This document shows, piece by piece, positions 22,533 to 64,000 of a stretch of DNA of 64,000 bases; the stretch's first letter is position 1, and every line of letters begins with the position of its first letter. This DNA comes from Truepera sp. GTDB lineage: Bacteria > Deinococcota > Deinococci > Deinococcales > Trueperaceae. The notes under the pieces are model-generated. The model was not told the DNA's origin. It searched no databases and worked only from the letters and a program-made list of their open reading frames with translations. The DNA lies in NCBI GenBank assembly GCA_965218435.1, contig CBDCKW010000009.1, positions 3,616,001-3,680,000 on the forward strand. Direction: 5' to 3'. Both the position numbers and the translations under genes were made by a program.

Positions 22533-23192
22533 TTGCGCCGCGTTTACGTTTTGCTTTTTTTCTGCCTAACTTCGCTGAGCGCCTGTGCGCCGGTCATCTT
22601 GGGCCGTACCCCGACGCCCGCGCCGGTCGGTCAAACCGAGGTCTTTGCCGCAGCGGGGGTGCCCCTTACCCTGACACCGCTGACGTGTGGTGGTACCGCT
22701 TACGGCTCAGCGGGTTGTCTCTCGAACGGACCTATCGGCCCGGACTACTGGCCTAAAGCCGCGCCGGTTCATATCATGAGTGCTTGGGGCGTCTCTGAGG
22801 CTAGAGAAGTCAATACGACCTTTAGCCTGTCGCTTAACCCGGGGTTTCGCTACGGCGGTAAAACGCTTATCAATGAGGCTCCTAAGCTCGCCTTCGATTA
22901 CGGCGTTTCCCTTTACGCGTTTAATCTCGGCTTAGACGCCGGTTTACTCGCCAGTGTGCCCTTTGAAGGGGGTGAACTTTACGGCGCTTTGCGCGGGTTT
23001 GGTACGCTGGTCTGGTCGTATGACCCGAGTTTAGCGGCTTCGGTCACGCTCGGCACGTTGGCTTTTATCGAGGGGCGAAAAACATTTTTTGAACTGACCT
23101 TAGCAACCGGCAGTTTTAATGAGGCCGGTCCCGCAGCGGGTGTCGCACCCGTAGGGTTTACGCTGACTCCGGCGGTAGGGTTTTATTTTTAG
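22533..23192 (+). CDS. Hypothetical lipoprotein, possible outer-membrane beta-barrel
   Basis: GGAGG RBS, lipobox LSAC, amphipathic beta-strand pattern, C-terminus VGFYF; paralog of the next gene. Confidence 0.6.
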   Translation: MRRVYVLLFFCLTSLSACAPVILGRTPTPAPVGQTEVFAAAGVPLTLTPLTCGGTAYGSAGCLSNGPIGPDYWPKAAPVHIMSAWGVSEAREVNTTFSLSLNPGFRYGGKTLINEAPKLAFDYGVSLYAFNLGLDAGLLASVPFEGGELYGALRGFGTLVWSYDPSLAASVTLGTLAFIEGRKTFFELTLATGSFNEAGPAAGVAPVGFTLTPAVGFYF

Positions 23193-23243
23193 CTCTCTAG
23201 CTTTGCTTTTTAAGCTGCTATGCTGCACCTTAAGAGGGAGTTT

Positions 23244-23966
23244 ATGTCACACACTACGCGAGTTGTAGGGGTCACTATTTTGTTTTTTGCTTTAAGTGCG
23301 TGTGCGCCGGTGATGCTAGGCCGCACGCCGACACCGGCTGCTCCGGGCATGACCAAAATAAGTGCCAGCGCGAGTTATCCGGTTGGGTTGACCGAAGCAC
23401 TTACACCGGTTGAAACCGGCTTGGTCAGCTTTACTGACCCGGCCTATTTGCCCCTCCCTCTACCATTAGACCTCCGAATTGCTTACGGCAGAAGTGAAAC
23501 GCTCGAGACTAACGTCGAGCTGATGGTTTCTCCTGGGATCGAAGGTTCTGTAACGACTGGCAGTGGAGACGACTACGGGGTCTATAACTTCGGTTTACGC
23601 TACGGTGTCAAAAACCGATTTGAAGAGAGTCCTATCGAACTCGCCTATGATTTTGGCGGTTCGGTCTATCCGCTCAGCCTTACCGCCGGCCTCGACGGAG
23701 GAACCTTGGCAGCGGTACCTCTCGGTGACGCGAAACTTTACGGTGGATTGCGCGGCTTCGTCGGGATTTTTCCGGGAATCGGCGCAGCGGCGCTCACAGT
23801 GGGGGGCGAGGTTCCGCTCGAGAACGCCCAAAGTGTGATGCTCGAGCTGACCCTGCTGGTCAACCGTTACAACGGTGCTGCCTATACCCTTCCCTTAGAG
23901 CCCAACCCGCCTGTACCTCAGCCCATCGGTTTTACCCTGGTTCCGGCGGTCACCTTTAACTTTTAA
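23244..23966 (+). CDS. Hypothetical lipoprotein, possible outer-membrane beta-barrel (tandem paralog)
   Basis: GGGAG RBS, LSACAPVMLGRTPTPA, C-terminus GFTLVPAVTFNF. Confidence 0.6.
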   Translation: MSHTTRVVGVTILFFALSACAPVMLGRTPTPAAPGMTKISASASYPVGLTEALTPVETGLVSFTDPAYLPLPLPLDLRIAYGRSETLETNVELMVSPGIEGSVTTGSGDDYGVYNFGLRYGVKNRFEESPIELAYDFGGSVYPLSLTAGLDGGTLAAVPLGDAKLYGGLRGFVGIFPGIGAAALTVGGEVPLENAQSVMLELTLLVNRYNGAAYTLPLEPNPPVPQPIGFTLVPAVTFNF

Positions 23967-26263
23967 CTCCGCAAATACGCCACCGTCACGCCGTGCCCAC
24001 CTTCATAAGGCGGCGCGTCTTCATAGCGTTCGACGCGTTTTTCATTTTTGAGGTAGCTCCGCACCGCGTCGCGCAGCGTACCGGTACCTTTGCCGTGCAA
24101 GATGCGGATACGCGGCGATTTGAGGGCGTGGGCCTCGAGCACAAAGTCCCGCACCTTTTCTAAAGCCGGTTCCACCCGTTCAGCCCGGATGTTGAGTTCA
24201 TCGTCAAACCGGGTCGGGGCGGTGTAACCGGTTGGCTTTTTGGCCTTTTTGGGTTGTCCCTGCAGCTTGACGCCGCTTTTGGGCACCGTGACCTTGAGCA
24301 GTCCGAGCTGGACGACAACTTCGTTGCTGCGCACTTCGACGACCGGCCCCTTAGCTCCGTAAGATTCGACATAGACCTCGGCACCAGGCTCGAGCGCCGG
24401 TTTTTTGCGCTCTGACGGGAGCGGTATCTTCTGCGCCGCCGGGATTTTCGGTTTGACGTTGCGCCGGAGTTGTTGCAGTTCGTTGAGCGCCTGGGAACGC
24501 CCTTCGGGGCTATTCGTCGCGGTGCGTTTGAGTTCTTTGGCGCGTTGCAAGGTGTCTTGTAAGAGTTCGTCGGCTCGTTCTGCAGCGGCAGCTAAGACTT
24601 CGTTTTCACGGCTCCGCAAGGTGGCGATCTGTTCCCGCAACACAGCGGCTTCACGGGCAGCTTCGTCGCGGTCGTTCTCCAGCTGGGCTTGGCCTTGCGC
24701 CAGTTCGTCGCGCTGACGCTCCAAAGTTTGGAGGAGGGTCTCGAGCGCGGCCCCTTCCGGCCCCAAAATCTCTTGTGCCCGTAAAAGGAGTTCATCGGCA
24801 AGCCCCAACCGTTCAGCAATGGCGAGCGCGTAAGAGCGGCCCGGTTGCCCGACGACGAGTTCGAAGCGAGGAGCCAAGTTCGCCACATCGAAACTCATCG
24901 CGGCGTTTTGCACACCGGTCGTCTCCGAGGCGAAGACTTTGAGGGGCGCTAAATGTGTGTTGATGAGGCCGCGTGCGCCACTCTTGAGAATGCGCTCGAG
25001 GATCGCCCGTGACAGCGCCGCACCTTCATCCGGGTCGGTGCCGGAACCGAGTTCGTCCACCAACACCAGCACGTCCGGCGCGGCCCGCTCCGCAATCGCT
25101 TTGAGGTTTTTAAGATGCCCCGCGTAGGTACTCAGGCTCGCTTCGATGCTCTGCTCATCGCCGATGTCGGTCAGTAGCGCCGTAAAGTGCGGCAGCGTCG
25201 GCTTGTCCTCCGCTGCGACAAAAAGCCCGCTGTGCGCCATTACCGCCGCCAGCCCGAGCGTCTTAAGTAAAACGGTTTTCCCCCCGGCGTTCGGGCCGGT
25301 GACAATCAGCAGGCGGTGGTCGTCGTCTAACGCAACGGTGTTCGGCACGCAGCCTTTAATCAGCGGGTGACAGGCGCGGGTCAGCTTGACCGTGCCGTCT
25401 TTGCTGAGTGTTGGTTGCGTAAGCTGCCAGTCTCTTGCCAGCCGCGCACTCGCCGCCACCAAATCCAGCTCAGCCAAGGTTTCTAACGTCTCATCTAGTC
25501 CCGGTTCAAACGCCAACCGCTGCCCGAGCGAGATCAAGATGCGCCGCACCTCGTCGCGCTCTTCAAACTCTAAAAGTGCCAGCTCATTGTTCATCGGGAC
25601 GACCGACTGTGGTTCGACAAACACCGTTGCGCCTGAGTCCGACGTATCTAAAACGATACCGGGTACCCGCGACTGCGACGACGCCCGTACCGGAATCACG
25701 TACCGGTCGCGCCGCAAGGTGATGATGTTGTCCTGGACGAATTCAGCGTAGCGGCCCAGCAGTTCTTGCAAGCGGTCGCGGATACGGCCCCGCAGCGGAT
25801 TTAGGCGGCGGCGAATCTCGCGGAGTTTGGGCGTCGCGTCGTCGCGGACGCGCCCGTCCGGGTCGAGCTGTTCGCGCACCAGTCGCAAAGCCCCGTCAAA
25901 ACTGCCGAGCTGCCGTGCGAGTTCAGACAGTGCTGGACGCTCCGAAGCTAAGATGCTCCGTTTGATGGTGCCGGACGCGTCCATCGTGTAGGCGATCTCG
26001 AGGAGCTCGAGCCCCTCCAACACCCGCCCGTCCCGTACCCGCTCTAAGAGAGGCCGGATGTCTTGAACGCCGCCGAGTGACAAGTCAGACCCGGAGAGTG
26101 CCTCAGCCGTCCGCGTCCACGCCTGTTCGACCTCCACGCGGCTCATCTCCGGGGAGACGGCGAGCACCCGCTCTATGCCCAAGGATGAGGCGGCGCGTTC
26201 GGCTAGGGCCGCTTGGATGCGGGGGAAGTCGAGTTTTTGCAGCGTGGTGGAGGTGACGTTCAC
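23963..26263 (-). CDS. mutS2: MutS2 endonuclease/ATPase with Smr domain
   Basis: TGPNAGGKT, DIGDEQSIEASLSTY, DELGSGTDP.EG, GQPGRSYAL, Smr ILHGKGTGTLR. Confidence 0.95.
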   Translation of the reverse strand: MNVTSTTLQKLDFPRIQAALAERAASSLGIERVLAVSPEMSRVEVEQAWTRTAEALSGSDLSLGGVQDIRPLLERVRDGRVLEGLELLEIAYTMDASGTIKRSILASERPALSELARQLGSFDGALRLVREQLDPDGRVRDDATPKLREIRRRLNPLRGRIRDRLQELLGRYAEFVQDNIITLRRDRYVIPVRASSQSRVPGIVLDTSDSGATVFVEPQSVVPMNNELALLEFEERDEVRRILISLGQRLAFEPGLDETLETLAELDLVAASARLARDWQLTQPTLSKDGTVKLTRACHPLIKGCVPNTVALDDDHRLLIVTGPNAGGKTVLLKTLGLAAVMAHSGLFVAAEDKPTLPHFTALLTDIGDEQSIEASLSTYAGHLKNLKAIAERAAPDVLVLVDELGSGTDPDEGAALSRAILERILKSGARGLINTHLAPLKVFASETTGVQNAAMSFDVANLAPRFELVVGQPGRSYALAIAERLGLADELLLRAQEILGPEGAALETLLQTLERQRDELAQGQAQLENDRDEAAREAAVLREQIATLRSRENEVLAAAAERADELLQDTLQRAKELKRTATNSPEGRSQALNELQQLRRNVKPKIPAAQKIPLPSERKKPALEPGAEVYVESYGAKGPVVEVRSNEVVVQLGLLKVTVPKSGVKLQGQPKKAKKPTGYTAPTRFDDELNIRAERVEPALEKVRDFVLEAHALKSPRIRILHGKGTGTLRDAVRSYLKNEKRVERYEDAPPYEGGHGVTVAYLRS

Positions 26264-26365
26264 AAAGGTAAATTATACGGGTTTAGACGCAAGAAACTAC
26301 ACCACGAGCAAACATTGCTTATGGCCTCAAAAAAATGTTCAGTTAATAGCTTTCAGTAGGCTAAT

Positions 26366-28771
26366 ATGTTGTATATGCTTCTCAAAACCGTTTTTGTGCG
26401 CTTCTACAAATCCTTTAATTACGATTACCTCAAAAAATTTCATGGGAAAGCTAAAGCTCAACCTTGGGAGAAGGTTGATAATATGTGGTATCCCTATGTT
26501 CGTGTCCCAATTGAGAATGAAGTCACAACGATTGTGGGGGCAAATGAATCAGGCAAGTCGCATCTTTTGACGGCAATAGAAAAGGGCATATCTGGTCAGA
26601 AAATTGCTAGAGAAGACTTTTGCCGATATTCGAATTTTTTTACGGTTGAGACGGGAAAACTTAGATGGCCGGACTTCGGTTTTGAGTTCGGTACCCTTTC
26701 AGATGACGAGCAGAAGTTGGTAAAAAGCATTTGTAATACCGGAAATAGTAAGGTAATCACTAAATTTTATGTTTTTAGAAGTCAACGCCAAAAGCTGACA
26801 ATATATCTACCAAAAGGTGAAAGTGGTGATTTTTCAGAGCACGAAGTGAGTACAGAGGACGAACCTGCGTTAGAAGGTCTCTTACCTCACATCTTTCGTC
26901 TGGATGCTGAGGTTGCTATTCCTAACAGTGTTTCAATCAAAGATTTAACCAAAGCAGAAAGCAAGTCAAGAGCGGAGACAATGGGGCGTAGCCGCAGATT
27001 TGATTTCATGAATAGCTTTTACAATTCTTCAAGCCTTTTTACTTCGCAGGAGGCAGTAAAATCGAATGCGTCCGCAATTTACTCCAGCTTTTCTAAATAC
27101 TATGTAGATGATTTTGATTCAAAAGAGGCAAGCAAGAGAGAAGCAGAAATTGATCTGGCCCATAAACTCATTTGTAAAGTAGCTAACGTTGATACTGAAG
27201 CTTTAACAGAACTTTACAACGCATTACGTGACGGTAAAGAAGGGCATGCTAACGGTATTATTGAAAGCATCAATGATCGTCTAGCAGCCAGCCTCAACTT
27301 TCCTAACTGGTGGGTACAAGACCGCAACTTCCAGCTCAAAGTTTCGCCGAGAGAGTTTGACCTAGTATTTACAATTCGAGATCGGACTGAAACAGAGTAT
27401 TCTTTTTCAGAGCGGAGCAGTGGACTGCGATACTTCCTAAGCTATTTTGTCCAATACTTGGCTCACGTTCCAAGAGAAGACAAGGCAGAAGTTTTGCTTA
27501 TGGATGAACCAGACGCCTATCTTTCAAGCCAAGCTCAACAAGACCTGTTGAAAGTTTTTGAGTCATATGCTTTGCCTCAGAACAATCGGAAACCCGTTCA
27601 GGTTGTGTACGTGACACATTCTCCATTCCTGATTGACAAGAATCATGCTGAGCGCATCAGAGTTCTAGACAAAGGTGTATCTGACGAGGGTACACGGGTA
27701 GTTAAAGACGCCGCTAGAAATCACTACGAGCCTTTACGCTCAGCGTTTGGGACTTATACAGGTGAACTAACGTTTATTGGTAACAACAATCTGATGGTCG
27801 AGGGATTAGCCGATCAAATTCTAATAGCTGGTGCAACAAATTATCTGCGGGGACGTAAAAATCTTTCAGATTTAGAACTACTGGACTTGAATAGGATTAC
27901 TATCGTACCTGCCGGTTCTTCGTCGGCAATCCCATATATGGCTTACCTAGCACGTGGGCGCGACGTTGAAAAGCCAGCAGTGGTCGTCTTACTAGATAGT
28001 GACAAGGCCGGTAACGAAGCAAAGCGTAGCTTACAGAGAGGTGGACCACATGCGAAACGGATTCTCAAAGAAAATCTTGTTTTCCAGATTGGAGAATTGG
28101 ACGAGTATTTACCTAGCAATGGTTACAAGCTAGTCGAAACAGAAGATTTAATCCCTCTGGGAATTTGTGTTGTTGCTGCACAAAATTATGCTAGAGATGT
28201 TTGTCAAGTAGAGCTTAGTGAAGTCGAAAAACTGACAGTAGAAGAAATCCACAATGGAATAGCGGGAGGAAAAACAGTATTCGATGCAGTCACGGGAGGC
28301 TTTTCGAAAGCCTATGGAGATAGTTTTCATATCGAAAAAGTGGGATTCGCTAAAAGTGTAATCGATCTAGTCTTAGGTAAAGTACCAGCTTCTATAAAAA
28401 GCCAAGACGCCAAGCAGTTCGAAGAAAATTTCAAAGCACTTTTCCGGAATCTGAACCGCATCATACGTGAAGCTGAACGTGAGATGAATCAAGAGCGTGT
28501 AACTCAAAAGGTAGAACGGCTTAAGAAAGCTTTTGTACAAGACAACGGAAGCGGTGCGTTGCGCGAAAAAGCACAGTTGCTATTTGAGAATATTGAAGCG
28601 TCACTGAACGACGACGAAGAAGGAGATGCTATTAGAGCTGAACTAGCCAAGCTGCGTCGGGACTTCAATATTGACAAGGATATTACTCAGCCCATCCAGG
28701 GATTTGAAAACTTTGTAACAGGGCTGGAGAAAGTCAAGTATGCAGGGCGACTAGCAACGCAAGAAAGTTAG
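26366..28771 (+). CDS. OLD-family-like ATP-dependent nuclease (ABC ATPase + TOPRIM), stand-alone, low GC
   Basis: Walker A GANESGKS, ERSSG, Walker B LMDEPDAYL, VTHSP, TOPRIM MVEGLAD and LLDSD. Confidence 0.8.
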   Translation: MLYMLLKTVFVRFYKSFNYDYLKKFHGKAKAQPWEKVDNMWYPYVRVPIENEVTTIVGANESGKSHLLTAIEKGISGQKIAREDFCRYSNFFTVETGKLRWPDFGFEFGTLSDDEQKLVKSICNTGNSKVITKFYVFRSQRQKLTIYLPKGESGDFSEHEVSTEDEPALEGLLPHIFRLDAEVAIPNSVSIKDLTKAESKSRAETMGRSRRFDFMNSFYNSSSLFTSQEAVKSNASAIYSSFSKYYVDDFDSKEASKREAEIDLAHKLICKVANVDTEALTELYNALRDGKEGHANGIIESINDRLAASLNFPNWWVQDRNFQLKVSPREFDLVFTIRDRTETEYSFSERSSGLRYFLSYFVQYLAHVPREDKAEVLLMDEPDAYLSSQAQQDLLKVFESYALPQNNRKPVQVVYVTHSPFLIDKNHAERIRVLDKGVSDEGTRVVKDAARNHYEPLRSAFGTYTGELTFIGNNNLMVEGLADQILIAGATNYLRGRKNLSDLELLDLNRITIVPAGSSSAIPYMAYLARGRDVEKPAVVVLLDSDKAGNEAKRSLQRGGPHAKRILKENLVFQIGELDEYLPSNGYKLVETEDLIPLGICVVAAQNYARDVCQVELSEVEKLTVEEIHNGIAGGKTVFDAVTGGFSKAYGDSFHIEKVGFAKSVIDLVLGKVPASIKSQDAKQFEENFKALFRNLNRIIREAEREMNQERVTQKVERLKKAFVQDNGSGALREKAQLLFENIEASLNDDEEGDAIRAELAKLRRDFNIDKDITQPIQGFENFVTGLEKVKYAGRLATQES

Positions 28772-54425: not shown

Positions 54426-55001
54426 ATGACTGCGCTCAAGCTTTTAGATACCGTCAGCGTTAAAGACTACCTCGAGGGCGAAAAAGACTCGCCGACCAAA
54501 CACGAATATGTCCATGGACGGGTCTTTGCACTGGCTGGAACAAGCGACGTTCATAACCGCATCAGCATCAACTTACTCGTTGCTTTGGACGCGGCGAGTA
54601 CAAAACAAGGCTGTCAACTTTTTGCTGCCGACCTTAAACTAAGTATTTTCGGTGAACGCTACTATTACCCCGATTTAATGGTGACCTGTGAGCCTGAAGC
54701 TGATCCCTATATCAAAGAAAAACCCTGCCTTATCATCGAGATATTATCCCGCTCCACCGCGAACACCGACCGCCGCGAAAAAGTAGACGCTTATCTGAGC
54801 TTGCCCTCGTTGCAGTCTTACGTTCTAATAGATTCTCAGATGAAACGAGTTGAGGCTTTCCTTCGGACACCTGAAGGCTGGCGAGAAGAGAGTTGGCAGG
54901 GAAGCGGTGAGGTGCCGTTCTCATGTTTGGACACGGCGCTCGGCTTTAACGCCGTCTACCGGGGTTTAGAGCTACCGGATTACCTCGAGCCTTTAGGTTA
55001 G
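54426..55001 (+). CDS. Uma2-family endonuclease-fold protein
   Basis: KHEYVHG, YYYPDLMVTC, IIEILSRST...DRREK..AY. Confidence 0.88.
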   Translation: MTALKLLDTVSVKDYLEGEKDSPTKHEYVHGRVFALAGTSDVHNRISINLLVALDAASTKQGCQLFAADLKLSIFGERYYYPDLMVTCEPEADPYIKEKPCLIIEILSRSTANTDRREKVDAYLSLPSLQSYVLIDSQMKRVEAFLRTPEGWREESWQGSGEVPFSCLDTALGFNAVYRGLELPDYLEPLG

Positions 55002-55092: not shown

Positions 55093-56295
55093 ATGAAAAT
55101 TACGATCCTGACCAACGAGTACCCGCCGCACATCTACGGCGGGGCGGGCGTCCACGTTGAATACTTAACCAAAGAGCTGGTCAAGCTTAACCCCGGTGAG
55201 ATTGACGTGTTGGCGTTTGGTGATCAGGATATTCACAACGGGTCTTTGAGTGTTGAGGGCGTTGAAGCGAAGACGGAACTTGGAGCACAAGACCCGCGTC
55301 ACGCGAAAGTTTTAGATACCTTGCAACGCGACCTCATCATGGCGGGTAAAGCGAAGGGGGGCGATATCGTACATTGCCACACCTGGTACACGCATTTTGC
55401 GGGCTGCTTGGTGCAGCAGCTGCAAGGGGCCAAACTCGTGTTGACGACGCACTCGTTAGAACCGCATCGCCCCTGGAAAGTCGAACAGCTCGGCAGCGCG
55501 TATCAGGTGAGCAGTTGGCTCGAGCGCACCGCCTTCCAAAATGCCGATGGGGTAATTGCGGTTTCGGAGTCTATGAAACGCGACGTGCACGAACTTTACG
55601 ACGTCCCGGAAACGAAAATCTCGGTGATCCCCAACGGCATTGACTTGGACGAATACAAACCGACCTTTGACGCGTCGGTCCTCGAGAAGTACGGCGTTGA
55701 CGCGTCACGACCGTTTGTGCTTTTTGTCGGCCGGATTACCCGGCAAAAAGGGATTTTGCACCTCGTCAACGCGCTGAAATACCTGCCTAAAGATACGCAG
55801 GTGGTGCTCTGTGCAGGTGCGCCCGATACCCCTGAGATCGGTGAGGAGATGAAAGGCCGGGTGCAAGCGGCGCACGACGCCGGGGCCGAGCAGGTGATCT
55901 GGATTGATGAGACAGTCGGGCGTGAAGACCTGATCAAGCTCTACTCGCACGCGGCGCTCTTTGTCTGCCCGTCGGTCTATGAACCGTTTGGGATTATCAA
56001 CTTAGAGGCGATGGCGTGTGAGACGCCGGTGGTGGCTTCAGCGGTCGGGGGCATTCCTGAAATCGTCGTCCCCGGTGAAACGGGGACACTCGTCCCACTC
56101 GAGGCTGGCGACGACTTTGAACCCACAGACCCGGACAAATTTGCACACGACTTAGCTGACGCCATTACCGAACTTTTAGACAATCCGGCAGAGCTAAAAA
56201 GGATGGGCAAGGCGTCCAGAAAACGGGTTGAGGAGAAATTCAGTTGGGGGGCGGTAGCAGAGGAGACGCTGGCGTTTTATCGGTCGCTGCTTTAG
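55093..56295 (+). CDS. glgM: GT4 glycosyltransferase, GlgM-type (actinobacterial 'glgA'; alpha-maltose-1-phosphate synthase-like)
   Basis: LTNEYPPHIYGGAGVHV, HCHTWY, HSLEP.RPWK.EQLG, FVGRITRQKG, YEPFGIINLEAMAC. Confidence 0.8.
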   Translation: MKITILTNEYPPHIYGGAGVHVEYLTKELVKLNPGEIDVLAFGDQDIHNGSLSVEGVEAKTELGAQDPRHAKVLDTLQRDLIMAGKAKGGDIVHCHTWYTHFAGCLVQQLQGAKLVLTTHSLEPHRPWKVEQLGSAYQVSSWLERTAFQNADGVIAVSESMKRDVHELYDVPETKISVIPNGIDLDEYKPTFDASVLEKYGVDASRPFVLFVGRITRQKGILHLVNALKYLPKDTQVVLCAGAPDTPEIGEEMKGRVQAAHDAGAEQVIWIDETVGREDLIKLYSHAALFVCPSVYEPFGIINLEAMACETPVVASAVGGIPEIVVPGETGTLVPLEAGDDFEPTDPDKFAHDLADAITELLDNPAELKRMGKASRKRVEEKFSWGAVAEETLAFYRSLL

Positions 56296-57934
56296 CGGTT
56301 GCTCGAGCTTTGCCCCGGTAATAACGTCTGTCACGGAGCAGCTGGGCTGACTGTCGTAAAACGGTGCAGTCGGCTTGGCTCAGACCTAAGTGGTCTTGCA
56401 AAAGTGCCCGGTCAGCTAAAGTCTGAGCCTCGTCCATTTTTTCCTGCCGTAAAAGTGCGTCCAGCTTGGTTTCAAGCTCTCCAAACTCACCCTCCGGCGT
56501 CGCCATCAGTACCCGCCGCGCTTCGCCGGGCTCGAGCTTGAGCATTCCGCCGCCCAAGGCGTGACCCTCTAACTCAACACTCAAACTTGTCAGTGAAGTC
56601 TGCCAAAACGCTGCTAGAGTCCTCGCCGAAAAGCTCATATCAGGCCGAAAACGGACGACGTGCAGGGTATTGGGTGCAACCGCCTCGGCGTCGTTGGCGA
56701 CAAGCTGCGGTCTCAGGCCACTCATATAGGTGAGCAAAGCGTCCGGTGTATAGACGTGTGGCACGCGGTACCAAGGGGTACGGACGCGGCATTTATACGC
56801 TCCTAAGACGCCTGCGTCTTCGCCTCGTTCCAGATAGCTTTTGAGTTCTGCGCTGAGTTCAGCATCTGTGATATTGAGGAGATAACCTGCGTTTTTGATG
56901 CTTACAGCACCGTTCCAATCAGCTTCGGTAAAGCTCAGGCCCGACAGCGCCGCACTACGAAAGACTGCGCGTTTGAGGTATCTGTCAGCTAATCCTAACT
57001 CGGCAGTTTGCTCCGGCCTCAGGTGAAAAAAACTGTTGGCTCCGGTGACGTAGCCAATCCCAACGTCGGCTAAAGTGCCAAGGCTCGAGACCTGCGGACG
57101 CGCTGACAACTGAGCATATAGTGCTTTAGCTTCAGGCGGCAAAAGCTGTGTGATGAGTTTTTCCTGTCCTTGTCTAAACGGTTCAAGAGGCAACTTAGTG
57201 ACATCTTTAAGAACAACGTCTACAGACTGAGCCAGTGCTTCGCCCTTATCCAAATCGCGCCAGAAAAGGCCCTCAGAGGCTCTGTTTTTGTTTTCAGCCA
57301 ACACCAGCAGCGTATCTTGGCTGAGGTCGGGAAAAAGCCGCTCCTTAAACGTCAGCAAGGTAACGCGCCCAAACGTTTGGGCGAGATAATTCAGAACGGG
57401 TTGCGCGTAAGCGGCGTGTCCCAGCTCTGCTGGAACGACCATACCGAGCCGCCCACCCGGTTTAAGAAACGCTGCACTATGGATGAGGAACGCCGCCCAC
57501 GAACTCGAGAGCTTGGTCAGCGTCACACCCTGCGCTTTAGCTCTCAAAGAGGCAAGTTCACCGCTAAAACTCTGGTAACGGATAAAAGGCGGATTGCCGA
57601 CGACGGCGTCTAATTTAGGCAGGGAAGTAGACTCTAACGCGAAAAAGTCCGCTTGTATCAGATGCTCCGGTGAGACGTTGGTTAGCTCTTGAGAGACTCG
57701 AGCATAAACCTCTTCGTCTAGCTCGACCCCGTAGACCTGCTGTTCACTCGTCCCACTCAGCTTGTCAATACGCGCCGCTGCCGCCTCTAAAAAGACGCCA
57801 CCGCCAAAACTCGGGTCCATCACCTTGTCGTTTGGACTGCGCACCGCCCACCGCACCAAAAACTCGGCGACAACCGTGCCCGTATAAAACGCGCCGAACG
57901 CTTTAGCTCGCCCTAAATCCATTTGCGGCCTCAC
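56240..57934 (-). CDS. Orphan N6-adenine DNA methyltransferase, gamma class (MamA/Rv3263-like)
   Basis: GAFYT, motif I DPSFGGGVFL, motif IV GNPPF, PGGRLGMVVPAEL, G.VTGANSFF, YKCRVR.PW, GGGMLKLEP.EA; no adjacent restriction endonuclease. Confidence 0.85.
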   Translation of the reverse strand: MRPQMDLGRAKAFGAFYTGTVVAEFLVRWAVRSPNDKVMDPSFGGGVFLEAAAARIDKLSGTSEQQVYGVELDEEVYARVSQELTNVSPEHLIQADFFALESTSLPKLDAVVGNPPFIRYQSFSGELASLRAKAQGVTLTKLSSSWAAFLIHSAAFLKPGGRLGMVVPAELGHAAYAQPVLNYLAQTFGRVTLLTFKERLFPDLSQDTLLVLAENKNRASEGLFWRDLDKGEALAQSVDVVLKDVTKLPLEPFRQGQEKLITQLLPPEAKALYAQLSARPQVSSLGTLADVGIGYVTGANSFFHLRPEQTAELGLADRYLKRAVFRSAALSGLSFTEADWNGAVSIKNAGYLLNITDAELSAELKSYLERGEDAGVLGAYKCRVRTPWYRVPHVYTPDALLTYMSGLRPQLVANDAEAVAPNTLHVVRFRPDMSFSARTLAAFWQTSLTSLSVELEGHALGGGMLKLEPGEARRVLMATPEGEFGELETKLDALLRQEKMDEAQTLADRALLQDHLGLSQADCTVLRQSAQLLRDRRYYRGKARATAKAATDKTPASPLLPPPN

Positions 57935-58590
57935 ACGCCCAAAATAACCCGCATCAGCCCAATCGTAACCCAGTTGATGAGGCCGTACACCTGCCGCTGA
58001 AAGAGGAGCAAAACCCCAAGGATCAGCAAAAATCCGTAACGCTCGAGGCCCCGCATCAGACGCTGCAACCTGCTGGGTAAAAACGCCTGTAAGATTTTGG
58101 ACCCGTCTAAAGGCGGAACCGGTAACAGGTTAAAAACGGCCAGCAAGATGTTGATCTGCGCGGCGACAAAAAGCCCGTAACGCAGCGAGTTGCCGCCACC
58201 GGGCGCACCCGGAAAGATGTCCCGGAGGTTGCTTAAGGTCGTGCCGAGCGCGGCCAACACGACCAGCGCAACGACGGCGATACTCAGATTGACCAAAATC
58301 CCGGCGATGGCCACCCAAAACATCCCGACGCGGTAGTGGCGAAAGTTGCCGGGTCGAATCGGCACGGGTTTGGCCCAACCGAAGCCGACGGTTAGGAGCA
58401 GCAAGGTTCCGATAGGGTCTAAGTGCTTGACGGGGTTAAGCGTGACGCGGCCCAAGTTGCGGGCGGTCTTGTCGCCCATGCGGTCGGCAACCCAAGCGTG
58501 CCCGAGTTCGTGGAGTGCCAGACTGTAGAGCAAGACCACTGCGACAATCGCAAAGGTGAGGGGCGCAGTTTGTAGAAGTTGTAAAAGCAC
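57931..58590 (-). CDS. Site-2 protease (M50 family), intact
   Basis: HELGH, GRVTLNP..HLDP.G, FGWAKPVP, FNLLPVPPLDG. Confidence 0.92.
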   Translation of the reverse strand: MLLQLLQTAPLTFAIVAVVLLYSLALHELGHAWVADRMGDKTARNLGRVTLNPVKHLDPIGTLLLLTVGFGWAKPVPIRPGNFRHYRVGMFWVAIAGILVNLSIAVVALVVLAALGTTLSNLRDIFPGAPGGGNSLRYGLFVAAQINILLAVFNLLPVPPLDGSKILQAFLPSRLQRLMRGLERYGFLLILGVLLLFQRQVYGLINWVTIGLMRVILGV

Positions 58591-59232
58591 CTAAAGGCCG
58601 GGGATCAGCTGAATAATCGCGCGGATAATCCCTAAAAAAAGGCTTTGCAACGCGCCGGTTACGCCCAAATAGCTCAGGGCAAAAAAGAATACGATAAAAC
58701 CCAACACGCCAAACGAGGCGATCTGCTGGACAAAACGGCGGAGACTCGGATTTCCCCAGGCGAGCGCACCCTTGGCTCCGTCGAGCGGAAACACCGGGAA
58801 GAGGTTGATGACTGCGTGCAACACGGCGACCGACGCGGCCAAAAAAAACGACCTCGCCAAAATCGGGCTGTTGACCGAAGCGAAAATTGCGCCTACCAAC
58901 GTAGAGACGAAGGCGACGATCAGATACGCGAGGGGGCCGCTGTACCACACCAGCGCCTCTTGCTGCCCGCGACCACGGTAGTTGCGGCTGTTGACCGGAA
59001 TAGACTGCGGCCAACCGAACCCGAGCAAAAAGAGAAACAAGACGCCGGTGGGCTCGAGCTGCCGCTGCAAATCAAACTTCATATAGCCGGCAAACCTCGG
59101 GTTGGCGTCGCCGTAACGCGAGGCGACGTACGCCTGGAAGACATTGTGAAAGACGAGCGCGACGATCATCACCAGCCCCACGATAATCAGGTCGGTCGTA
59201 TTATAAAAACCTTGAATATAACTAACAATCAT
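58591..59232 (-). CDS. Site-2 protease paralog with degenerate HExxH (HNVFQ)
   Basis: Retains GFGWP..IPVN, SGP and NLFPVFPLDG, but HExxH is replaced by HNVFQ. Confidence 0.75.
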   Translation of the reverse strand: MIVSYIQGFYNTTDLIIVGLVMIVALVFHNVFQAYVASRYGDANPRFAGYMKFDLQRQLEPTGVLFLFLLGFGWPQSIPVNSRNYRGRGQQEALVWYSGPLAYLIVAFVSTLVGAIFASVNSPILARSFFLAASVAVLHAVINLFPVFPLDGAKGALAWGNPSLRRFVQQIASFGVLGFIVFFFALSYLGVTGALQSLFLGIIRAIIQLIPGL

Positions 59233-59244
59233 GCTTGCTCCCGC

Positions 59245-60408
59245 TTAAGAAATATCGTCAACGAGGCGTTTAGCCAGCGCCAATTCGTCAGCAAAAGACG
59301 CGACCCGCGCGTCTAGGCGAGCTTGTGCTAATAAAGACAAAACTCTGCCGACCTCAGGCCCCGCCGATAGCCCTAAGCTTAGCACGTCGCTGCCGCTTAC
59401 CTGCGGGTAGTCCGTCCCGGCGCTACTCGGCCCGGCCGCTTGCGCAACTGTTTTCTCAGCCGGGGTAACGGCCGCTCCGCCTGCCTTTAACCCGCCTGCC
59501 CCTAACCTTCTTCTTGCTGCCAGCAGCTTTTTAGGGAGGCTAAAGGTTGAGACAAACGCTTCAGCTTCGCCTTCTGGAATCCCGAGTAAAAGGGCTAGCA
59601 GGTAACTCTCGAGCGGCACTGGTACCTTTAGCTCAGCTTTAAGCGCGTCGAGGCGTCCCACAAGCGGTGTATCTTTGAGGCCGTAAAGCTCAGAGAGCGC
59701 ACCTGACGCGCTGAGATAGGTAAGTGCGGGCGCAACCTGCGTTTCGGCAAGCGTGATGAGCAGCTCGTTTTTGAGGCGGCTGGGGCTGACCTGCCGGTAG
59801 ACCTCGGCGGCTAAAGCTTCTTTAAGCGCGGTCTCAGCCTCGTCATCGTAACGAAACCCCAACCTTCCAGCGAGCCGTGCCCCCCGAACGATACGGGTCG
59901 GGTCGTCAAAAAACGAACGTTCGTGGAGGATGCGTAAAGCGCGGCGCTCCAAGTCGTTGACTGCTCCGGGAACGCTCAGCAGCGTGGTCGGTTCAGCGAG
60001 GTCTAAGGCAAACGTATTAACTGAAAAGTCGCGGCGGGTGAGGTCAGCTTGGATCGCTCCGGGCGTGACTTTGGGAAGTGCGCCGGGGCGCGTGTAAACC
60101 TCGGTTCGGGCTGTTGCCAGGTCGAGCGTCAGCGTGGGCAGCGTTAAGGTGCAGGTCAAAAACGTCTCGTGACAGGTTAAGGTTCCGCCGAGTCGCTTGT
60201 GCAGGGCTACGCCCAAGGTTTTCGCAGGTGTTTCGCTGACCCAATCGAGGTCGCGGCTGGCGTGCCCGAGTAACAGGTCTCTAACGACGCCGCCGACGAG
60301 GTAGATGCGTGCGCCGAACTGCGCCGCGATCTCTGAAACTGCCTCGACAACCTCTTGAAGCTCGAGTTCCATCAGCAGCGGGGCTACAGGCTGAGCGTCA
60401 ATATCCAC
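59245..60408 (-). CDS. cca: Class II tRNA nucleotidyltransferase (CCA/A-adding type)
   Basis: VGGVVRDLLLG..SRDLD, DLATARTE.Y..PGALP, DLTRRDFSVN, SFFDDPTRI.R. Confidence 0.85.
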   Translation of the reverse strand: MDIDAQPVAPLLMELELQEVVEAVSEIAAQFGARIYLVGGVVRDLLLGHASRDLDWVSETPAKTLGVALHKRLGGTLTCHETFLTCTLTLPTLTLDLATARTEVYTRPGALPKVTPGAIQADLTRRDFSVNTFALDLAEPTTLLSVPGAVNDLERRALRILHERSFFDDPTRIVRGARLAGRLGFRYDDEAETALKEALAAEVYRQVSPSRLKNELLITLAETQVAPALTYLSASGALSELYGLKDTPLVGRLDALKAELKVPVPLESYLLALLLGIPEGEAEAFVSTFSLPKKLLAARRRLGAGGLKAGGAAVTPAEKTVAQAAGPSSAGTDYPQVSGSDVLSLGLSAGPEVGRVLSLLAQARLDARVASFADELALAKRLVDDIS

Positions 60409-62664: not shown

Positions 62665-63846
62665 TCAAGAACTTGTTACTTGAATTTCCTGGTCTTCTTT
62701 CGGCAGTGTGAACAAATTTTTGCCTTGTGAGTCAAATAATTCAAGATAGAGTGTGAACCTATATATCCTATTTCTTTGGTTACCTGTTATCTCTTCGATA
62801 AAGCCGAGCTTCGTCAGCTGCGCGGTGAGTTTGTTCGCTGTAACGTAGGTACATTTAAGATGCGCCGCAGCCATCTGAACGCTAAAGATCGGCTGCTCGA
62901 AAAAGAACTCGAGCAAGCTCAGAGCATTGGCGTTGTTTCTCAATTGGTCGCGGCAAGATTCTCTCAGCGAAAGAATTTTGCGAGCGGTTTCTACAGCTTC
63001 TTGACTCACAGTGCGGACACCCGTCAGAAAAAACCTGAGCCAGCCCTCCCAATCGTCATCATTTCGAATTGCCGTGAGCCTGTCATAGTACTGGGCTCTA
63101 TGCGCTTTTAAGTAGTGACTAAGATAAAGGAGAGGCCGTTCCAATGCTCCCTGCTCACATAACAGAAGCGTTACCAGCAGACGTCCTACACGACCATTAC
63201 CGTCTGAAAACGGGTGAATGGTTTCAAACTGTGCGTGCGCAAGGCCACACTTTACCAGTAAAGGAAAAGAGTCTGTGCTGTGCAAAAACTTTTCCAGGTT
63301 ATCAAGTGCTACGAGCATCTCGTGAGGCGGCGGAGGAACAAAATCGGCGTTTTGAATAGTTGAGCCTTGCGCACCAATCCAGTTTTGTGAGCGCCTGAAC
63401 TCACCCGGCTGTTTTGTTTCGCCTCTAACGCCTTTAAGAAGTTCAGCGTGAATTTCCCTGATAAGCCGCAAACTTAGAGGTAGGGTCTCGAGCCTCTCAA
63501 GACCGTAATTCATGGCGCTGATATAGTTAATGACCTCTTCTAAATCACCTGGGTAAGGCGTTTCCCGGTCAGCTGCTTCAAACAGCAAAACGTCCTCGAG
63601 CGTTGTGTGTGCTCCTTCGATTTGAGAACTTAGAACGGCCTCTTGGCGCACATACATTGCTACAAACAAATCTGGGTTGGGCAAAATAGAAGTTACGCCG
63701 TCCAGACGGGCTAGAGCTCTATCTGCTTGTGAAAGAAGGCGGCTCACCTCGGAGCTGAGATTTATAGGGAGCTTAGGCGGTAATGGCGCTGGGATAAAAG
63801 CGGTATAGCCGCTCGGTTGTTTTATAAAGTGCCCCGCTTTTGACAT
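62665..63846 (-). CDS. Fic-family protein with N-terminal inhibitory helix
   Basis: HPFSDGNGRVGR catalytic motif; SSQIEG inhibitory motif; PGEFRRSQNWIG. Confidence 0.92.
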   Translation of the reverse strand: MSKAGHFIKQPSGYTAFIPAPLPPKLPINLSSEVSRLLSQADRALARLDGVTSILPNPDLFVAMYVRQEAVLSSQIEGAHTTLEDVLLFEAADRETPYPGDLEEVINYISAMNYGLERLETLPLSLRLIREIHAELLKGVRGETKQPGEFRRSQNWIGAQGSTIQNADFVPPPPHEMLVALDNLEKFLHSTDSFPLLVKCGLAHAQFETIHPFSDGNGRVGRLLVTLLLCEQGALERPLLYLSHYLKAHRAQYYDRLTAIRNDDDWEGWLRFFLTGVRTVSQEAVETARKILSLRESCRDQLRNNANALSLLEFFFEQPIFSVQMAAAHLKCTYVTANKLTAQLTKLGFIEEITGNQRNRIYRFTLYLELFDSQGKNLFTLPKEDQEIQVTSS

Positions 63847-64000
63847 AAGTGTCCGCCTCTTCCAGCCTTGTTTTACTGCTCTATAACAAGGCAATTACGA
63901 GAACAATTATATTATACAGAAACGCTTTTTATTAAAACAATACCGCTTATGGGCGGCGTGGCGGCAGCTAGGGTTTTGAGCTCTTATTCCTTCCACGGTT

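Follow-up and report, generated by a model that had tools for sequence, protein, structure and literature searches.

The closest known system to the one described here is HIP1 (GCGATCGC), together with the alternative highly iterated palindromes (HIPs) of cyanobacteria and their orphan methylases DmtA and DmtC, as set out in the accessible portions of three papers (PMC4390886, PMC5861425, and PMC13756078). In what is available of Elhai 2015, every cyanobacterial HIP has a matching methylase, sites number 1,000 to 2,000 per Mb, and neither Thermus nor Deinococcus is mentioned (PMC4390886); the corresponding part of Xu 2018 reports HIP1 to be conserved and periodic (PMC5861425), and that of Rodriguez-Cruz 2026 cites methylation-dependent gains in transformation (PMC13756078). 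For three decades, what HIP1 does and where it came from have stayed unsettled, and in these portions all three papers treat it as cyanobacterial. Here we analyzed a DNA methyltransferase gene (positions 56240 to 57934, minus strand) in a 64,000-nucleotide stretch of a Truepera sp. genome, referred to below as the window (GenBank assembly GCA_965218435.1, contig CBDCKW010000009.1, positions 3,616,001 to 3,680,000), in which the hexamer CTCGAG is strongly over-represented. We think it probable that this methylase behaves as an orphan writer of a HIP-type palindrome, a reading that depends on a predicted target and on a rule that one sister family (f5) may break.

CTCGAG resembles HIP1 in being a GC-rich palindrome with about 2,000 sites per Mb, found within and between genes and conserved between genomes, and in being accompanied by an orphan methylase predicted to recognize it. 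It differs in being a hexamer, enriched 5-fold here and about 10-fold in f5, compared with 15- to 300-fold for the HIP1 octamer, and in occurring in other phyla; in addition, its predicted writer is a gamma-class N6-methyladenine (m6A) enzyme of restriction-modification origin, and writer families vary among lineages.

Orphan m6A methylation of CTCGAG has already been published, so that the mark in itself is not new, although the initial annotation had put the whole forward as its best candidate for an undescribed system. The S3 table of Blow 2016 gives CTCGAG as m6A methylated at 99.5% in Meiothermus ruber, 94.1% in M. chliarophilus, and 94.6% in Marinithermus hydrothermalis by single-molecule real-time sequencing, and the part of that paper available lists M.Mru1279II, M.Mch9957IV, and M.Mhy14884I as m6A CTCGAG methylases with no cognate nuclease (PMC4752239). 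These enzymes share with the window methylase their phylum, the (here predicted) mark, and the lack of a cognate nuclease. The solitary gamma-class protein that was compared, recorded under the M. ruber name at locus L024 and probably M.Mru1279II, differs in being PaeR7I-like and is 24% identical to the window methylase. The M. chliarophilus CTCGAG enzyme was not among 10 Thermaceae-clade clusters, no in-place swap of the two writer families was seen in Meiothermus, and in the region from M. extorquens AM1 the sole match was PaeR7I-like. In the available portion of Blow 2016, the main text names no Meiothermus, Thermus, or Deinococcus (the family table in Fig. 3D may include them) and makes no mention of genome-wide CTCGAG over-representation (PMC4752239). 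Our literature search, in a corpus holding few subscription papers, returned nothing relevant on CTCGAG over-representation in this phylum; a HIP1-like over-representation of the site was not found in print. A 2026 hot-spring preprint, in the part available, describes CTCGAG and TCGA as common to one host-phage group (10.64898/2026.06.24.734251).

The initial annotation had compared the enzyme with MamA of Mycobacterium tuberculosis, which the accessible text of Shell 2013 describes as a gamma-class methylase targeting CTGGAG, with 1,947 sites in H37Rv (PMC3701705). According to the available part of Randall 2020, the M. smegmatis MamA homolog is paired with the nuclease MSMEG_3214, and its CTCGAG target is a REBASE prediction rather than a measurement (PMC7526240). 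The likeness is that of a gamma-class m6A enzyme that is an orphan in one lineage and nuclease-paired in another; the difference is that CTGGAG is not enriched in the window genome and that MamA sites are about a fifth as numerous as CTCGAG is here. A PDB sequence search with the methylase for MamA gave 0 matches, a search from a mycobacterial plasmid homolog returned no protein named MamA, and no MamA-like synteny was seen in a 378-genome class search, in a class that may not be Actinomycetes. We take MamA to be similar in size to the window methylase, which is at most a candidate ortholog of it. M.Eco57I-like methylases (Pfam PF22837), CamA, M.BseCI, and M.TaqI have the same domain architecture and fold and recognize other targets.

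The gene, its parts, and its predicted target are as follows.

56240 to 57934, minus strand: gamma-class N6-adenine DNA methyltransferase, an M subunit from a type II restriction-modification family, now an orphan; 564 amino acids from GTG, 560 from the ATG at 57922
57809 to 57829, minus strand: motif I (S-adenosylmethionine [SAM] binding), DPSFGGG, residues 36 to 42
57596 to 57607, minus strand: motif IV (catalytic), NPPF, residues 110 to 113
56369 to 57118, minus strand: C-terminal target-recognition region (Pfam M_Eco57I_C, residues 273 to 522), holding GYVTGAN, YKCRVRTPW, and GGGMLKLEP
56240 to 56308, minus strand: 22-residue read-through tail, modeled as disordered (predicted local distance difference test [pLDDT] score <50); the nuclease gene starts here in congener G005
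1 to 64000, no strand assigned: 133 CTCGAG sites, the predicted target, of 9,883 genome-wide

Motif I precedes motif IV and the target-recognition region is C-terminal, which is the gamma order, and Pfam N6_Mtase, Eco57I, and M_Eco57I_C all score above their cutoffs, bearing out the initial annotation of a full gamma-class methylase. A structural model built on 90 homologs (pLDDT 91) has an M.TaqI/CamA-like fold, with CamA (TM score 0.75), M.BseCI, and M.TaqI as structural matches; identity to solved structures is 14 to 19%. The protein does contain the recognition-region motifs named in the initial annotation, and these vary little or not at all across the 90 homologs. Its GTG start does overlap the stop codon of the upstream site-2 protease gene (GTGA), as had been described, yet the ATG at 57922, four codons further on and preceded by GAGG, would serve as a start equally well or better; the closest protein in the databases, at 98% identity, has 560 amino acids. 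Homologs at 26 to 37% identity occur on viral contigs (13 were found). The GC content of 0.55, earlier called host-like, is above the 10th percentile of host genes (0.528) and just under their lower quartile (0.558). The ratio of nonsynonymous to synonymous substitution rates (dN/dS) against congener G005 is 0.13, compared with a median of 0.10 over 225 ortholog pairs (a crude estimate, with dS near 1), and the gene is under purifying selection. Promoter and terminator scans gave chance-level results only. As judged from its sequence, then, this is an intact gamma-class m6A methyltransferase that is predicted to be active.

Among 80 homologous methylase loci from named genomes, 67 have a conserved nuclease neighbor of 200 to 330 amino acids (called at a hidden Markov model E value of ≤1e-3). 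The 13 loci without one include 7 Deinococcota-titled and 1 Myxococcota-titled; some of the others stop at contig edges. The partner family has a PD-(D/E)xK-like D...K arrangement plus a short N..NR.EE segment common to XhoI-family nucleases, a link that is weak (Pfam E value of 0.03 in 1 of 14 neighbor proteins, namely 13 from the cluster and one candidate; 12 bits against three XhoI-family proteins). In congener G005, at the same locus behind a cca-like gene and two site-2 protease (S2P) genes, a whole 222-amino-acid nuclease open reading frame (ORF) follows the methylase; it differs at 2 of 27 conserved positions and retains the putative catalytic D and K. In G012 the nuclease start is retained beside an assembly gap, whereas in the window genome, G002, and G004 the nuclease is gone and the methylase frame continues into the antisense of a convergent glycosyltransferase gene, whose 3' end the read-through tail overlaps by 56 bp. 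The adjacent nuclease gene of a complete type II system is missing at the window locus, in agreement with the initial annotation, and neither the partner family nor an XhoI-family nuclease was found elsewhere in the genome (100% complete, 9 contigs). Because a nuclease stands at 67 of the 80 homologous loci and one congener retains it at this very locus, the gene represents the methylase half of a type II restriction-modification pair that has lost its partner. The earlier term "domesticated solitary methylase" fits insofar as the gene is under purifying selection and present in all six genomes of the genus; what needed correcting was its restriction-modification origin. More distant homologs (about 35% identity) have large "N-6 DNA methylase" genes as partners, an arrangement resembling that of Eco57I. 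The partner of the closer homologs is a small nuclease, apparently of a type that as a rule has palindromic targets.

Three side observations concern these nucleases. Members of the partner family also occur on plasmids, and the family, of which L002:866-1534 (minus strand) is a whole ORF, is unannotated, with no above-cutoff Pfam match. In congener G001, at locus L161 (G001:C1:1094188-1097598), a PaeR7I-like methylase is followed by an XhoI-family nuclease broken into two ORFs, a second orphaning under way within the same genus.

CTCGAG is the commonest hexamer of the window genome, with 9,883 sites against 1,892 expected under a second-order Markov model (5.2-fold; 2.06 per kb), so that the high enrichment previously noted is confirmed; the next palindrome has an observed/expected ratio (O/E) of only 1.13. 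With genes called roughly by ourselves (4,069 in all) and amino acid and codon use taken into account, the site is enriched 3.4-fold in the CTC-GAG frame (6,337 versus 1,892 expected), 8.4-fold and 5.3-fold in the two remaining frames, and 6.7-fold in intergenic DNA (637 versus 96 expected). Codon or Leu-Glu bias as the cause is ruled out by this corrected enrichment in every frame and between genes. Synonymous one-step neighbors are mostly depleted (CTC-GAA, 0.19; CTG-GAG, 0.21; CTT-GAG, 0.32), with CTAGAG in frame +1 (3.1) as an exception, and a Vsr-type C-to-T ratchet is disfavored because transversion neighbors are depleted as much as transition ones. Sites are spread evenly (86 to 131 per 50 kb) and are thinner in low-GC genes (1.3 versus 2.1 to 2.4 per kb). 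At conserved Leu-Glu positions, 231 of 288 CTCGAG sites are kept in G005 at a dS of about 1 (odds ratio, 14.5), compared with 30 to 61% (odds ratios, 1.7 to 9.0) for nine control codon pairs with at least 35 cases each; this comparison covers one genome pair, 225 genes, and the Leu-Glu frame, with seven codon pairs of ≤15 cases left out, and is compatible with selection and with directional repair bias alike. Like a HIP, CTCGAG is over-represented genome-wide independently of frame and codon use, and its sites are conserved between genomes. The five sites within the methylase gene (56302, 56531, 57084, 57504, and 57697), cited in the initial annotation, are present and carry no weight, as about 3.5 are expected by chance at the genome density. 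The same genome avoids the majority of 6-bp palindromes, many of them very strongly (GGCGCC, 0.02; GGGCCC, 0.03; TTTAAA, 0.04; AGGCCT, 0.07), far beyond what its resident methylases explain.

To compare genomes, we divided the whole-genome CTCGAG count by the CTCGAC count and called a genome enriched at a ratio of ≥2, a cutoff set after seeing the data. Close homologs of the methylase occur in 22 of 37 genomes of the family, including 6 of 6 from the genus. A second methylase family occurs in 4 of the 37 and is absent from 5 of the 6 genus genomes; we presume it to be PaeR7I/XhoI-like from motif likeness and the adjacent XhoI-family nuclease in G001. Of 18 enriched genomes, 14 carry the window methylase family, 3 the second family only, and 1 (G017) neither; among the other 19, these numbers are 8 with the window methylase family and 11 with neither (Fisher's P = 0.001, overstated since the genomes are kin and the cutoff is post hoc). 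Six of the eight weakly enriched carriers form one supported clade with an altered YKCR motif, which is also altered in G023 (ratio, 2.1), and the G015 enzyme is fragmented. FastTree groups all 22 family enzymes (support, 0.984), a grouping that a quick IQ-TREE run did not resolve. The search for alternative writers across relatives covered C5, PaeR7I-like, and TaqI-like families; C5 methylases are absent from 3 of 5 congeners. The other methylases of the window genome (type I, type III, type IIG, a D12 enzyme beside a transposase, and two C5 enzymes) were considered as writers, and none looked genus conserved.

A second lineage gives the same pattern. The Myxococcota-titled genome G062 carries an orphan homolog at about 51% identity and 19,006 CTCGAG sites. 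Among G062 and 30 relatives, a close homolog (E value of <1e-100) is present in three genomes, and these have the three highest CTCGAG/CTCGAC ratios (G443, 3.7; G062, 3.6; G444, 1.8), the other 28 being at ≤1.09. The enzymes of G062 and G443 lie on branches separate from those of Deinococcota, with the placement of G444 not resolved in the tree, and the three carriers probably represent one or two events rather than three. It is thus supported that methylase presence tracks CTCGAG enrichment in two separate lineages. A methylase of a matching family, given the predicted specificity, accompanies the abundant site in 17 of 18 enriched family genomes and in 3 of 3 of the Myxococcota group, with none shared in f5. 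In the same Myxococcota group (loci L088, L338, and L340), GAGCTC is almost missing from G062 (170 sites) and G443 (152 sites). Two further genomes, G451 and G454, show strong depletion of CTCGAG (ratios, 0.12 and 0.17; locus L341), the former having a distant (33%) solitary homolog.

Several observations weigh against a simple link between this enzyme and its presumed site. The six genomes of f5 (G040, G044, G048, G052, G056, and G060; loci L286 and L287) have 23,000 to 28,000 CTCGAG sites each (5 to 6 per kb; O/E 9.6 in 40 kb of G060), the most extreme enrichment seen, and no close homolog. One f5 genome has a 32% match to the second methylase family; a scan of four f5 genomes and G017 for five Pfam methylase families found no methylase common to all four, although the two g36 genomes in the comparison have a C5 enzyme in common and the two g40 genomes a D12 enzyme. 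Within the family, eight carriers are barely enriched, among them G022 with an intact-looking enzyme (ratio, 1.16), and the weakly enriched genomes have O/E values of 1.1 to 3.2 (in 20- to 40-kb samples) that overlap G001 at 2.2; G017 is strongly enriched and neither methylase family was found in it (92% complete). G005 is equally enriched (O/E 5.0) even though its nuclease ORF is whole, a setting in which one would expect the site to be avoided. At loci of the methylase family from beyond Deinococcota and the Myxococcota group, CTCGAG is neither enriched nor avoided (O/E 0.93 in flanks and 0.70 in operons), and site avoidance on seven small plasmids and in 65 operons was uninformative as to the target. 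No methylome or assay was found for the methylase or any close homolog. The comparison of gene presence with enrichment proposed in the initial annotation therefore came out mixed: the two track each other in two lineages, yet an outcome that the initial annotation had named as counting against its reading is seen in part, since relatives keep and exceed the enrichment without this gene, either with the other methylase family or, in f5, with no shared gamma-class enzyme found. Other lineages also depart from the pattern. CTCGAG is depleted in family f2 (ratios, 0.10 to 0.35), and in g35 (G039, G043, and G055; loci L217 to L219) CTCGAC is nearly absent (8 to 54 per strand) while about 2,000 CTCGAG are kept; g35 carries a methylase gene that we take to be M.TaqI-like, with a 54 to 56% relative in G042. 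GAGCTC is almost missing from f5 as well (4 to 24 per genome).

The explanation we favor, and consider probable as a whole, is that of an orphaned CTCGAG writer kept for a HIP-like palindrome. The lineage would have acquired the methylase as one half (M) of a type II restriction-modification pair; the gene would have become established after the cca-S2P-S2P genes and been retained once the nuclease was lost, since CTCGAG acts, in much of the phylum, as a highly iterated palindrome at about two sites per kb in silent positions. An active SAM-dependent enzyme would write m6A on both CTCGAG strands; that it is active and has this target is likely. Because other lineages have a PaeR7I/XhoI-like writer instead, it would be the methylated site that matters rather than the particular enzyme. 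A causal tie between methylation and enrichment seems slightly better favored than its absence. As for what the mark does, our guess, by analogy with HIP1 and with little confidence, is that methylation biases DNA uptake or recombination in such a way that near-sites are ratcheted into perfect ones; a chromosome-organizing reader protein ranks behind it and seems less likely still.

Causation could instead run in the other direction: something other than methylation (a reader protein, an uptake sequence, or an old mutational bias) would have made CTCGAG abundant, and in a genome so rich in sites any arriving CTCGAG methylase would have been kept as a shield against XhoI-type nucleases, in a protective and not a regulatory role. 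This would suit f5, which is more enriched with no shared writer found, g35, with its loss of CTCGAC next to some 2,000 CTCGAG, the origin of writers in different families derived from mobile restriction-modification pairs, and the broken XhoI-family nuclease adjoining the PaeR7I-like methylase in G001. It would, however, require CTCGAG to have risen independently, and without methylation, in precisely the Myxococcota lineage that bears the enzyme, and recognition-motif erosion accompanies enrichment loss in one clade, although reverse causation allows that too; we regard it as unlikely, while giving it some weight. A further rival is that the target is a different motif, be it the CTGGAG of MamA, the CTGAAG of M.Eco57I, or some other palindrome, in which case the enrichment has nothing to do with the enzyme. 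Pfam groups the target-recognition region with M.Eco57I, the distant homologs stand in an Eco57I-like arrangement, identity to the PaeR7I-like M. ruber protein is low, and in one study a methylase whose best match was a CTCGAG enzyme at 25% identity recognized BAAAA. On the other hand, the window genome has O/E values of 0.87 for CTGGAG and 1.18 for CTGAAG (missing enrichment does not exclude CTGGAG as the target), the small nuclease paired with the closer homologs is apparently of a palindrome-cutting type, and co-occurrence with CTCGAG in two lineages would have to be coincidence. We consider another target improbable.

The Dam/CcrM half of the "Dam/CcrM/HIP1-style" label in the initial annotation fared worse than the HIP1 half, whose enrichment properties are seen here. 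A mark that sets the timing of replication initiation, steers mismatch repair, or controls promoters would be consistent with a conserved orphan in a housekeeping gene run and, in the accessible part of Blow 2016, with some CTCGAG sites lacking methylation in two related organisms (S5 rows) and with CTCGAG clusters at Nocardia origins (PMC4752239). There is no CTCGAG in the dnaA-dnaN spacer, which carries nine DnaA boxes, and the sites are evenly spread; MutH was not found in any of five genomes searched, with the E. coli positive control matched; and in many members of the family the gene is either absent or eroded. We consider such a regulator very unlikely.

Taken singly, the gene is an ordinary orphaned type II methylase; it is the wider pattern that deserves follow-up. 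A bolder reading, to which we give less than even odds, is that CTCGAG is a second, independently evolved HIP system that extends over much of Deinococcota (f2 being depleted) and arose again in a Myxococcota lineage gaining the same methylase family, with some methylation-reading process in uptake, recombination, or chromosome organization driving it to 2 to 6 sites per kb and several captured methylases able to write it. If so, HIP biology would have natural replicates through another palindrome, with interchangeable writers, intermediate stages (complete pair, orphan, and eroded orphan), and another phylum in which the system arose separately; a bare methylase could start a HIP, and the reader could be sought in culturable thermophiles. 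The question would become testable where the mark has already been measured, as in Meiothermus ruber.

The genes around the methylase are listed below.

59245 to 60408, minus strand: tRNA nucleotidyltransferase, cca-like, first gene of the run
58591 to 59232, minus strand: site-2 protease paralog without HExxH (HNVFQ)
57931 to 58590, minus strand: site-2 protease (M50), HELGH, whose stop overlaps the methylase GTG start
55093 to 56295, plus strand: GT4 glycosyltransferase, convergent, which bounds the locus

The order cca, S2P without HExxH, S2P, methylase holds as first described, with the methylase last. When 1.5-kb flanks were compared, the complete order was common to 4 of 5 congeners and G012 and partial in G035. 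The glycosyltransferase is presumably glgA-like. Beyond it, 1.2 kb from the methylase, lies a putative Uma2-family nuclease gene (54426 to 55001), and a Fic-domain gene is present at 62665 to 63894; nothing links either one to the methylase. In the tandem site-2 protease pair (57931 to 59232), the first copy is conserved (dN/dS, 0.13) despite lacking HExxH and is possibly an inactive partner subunit.

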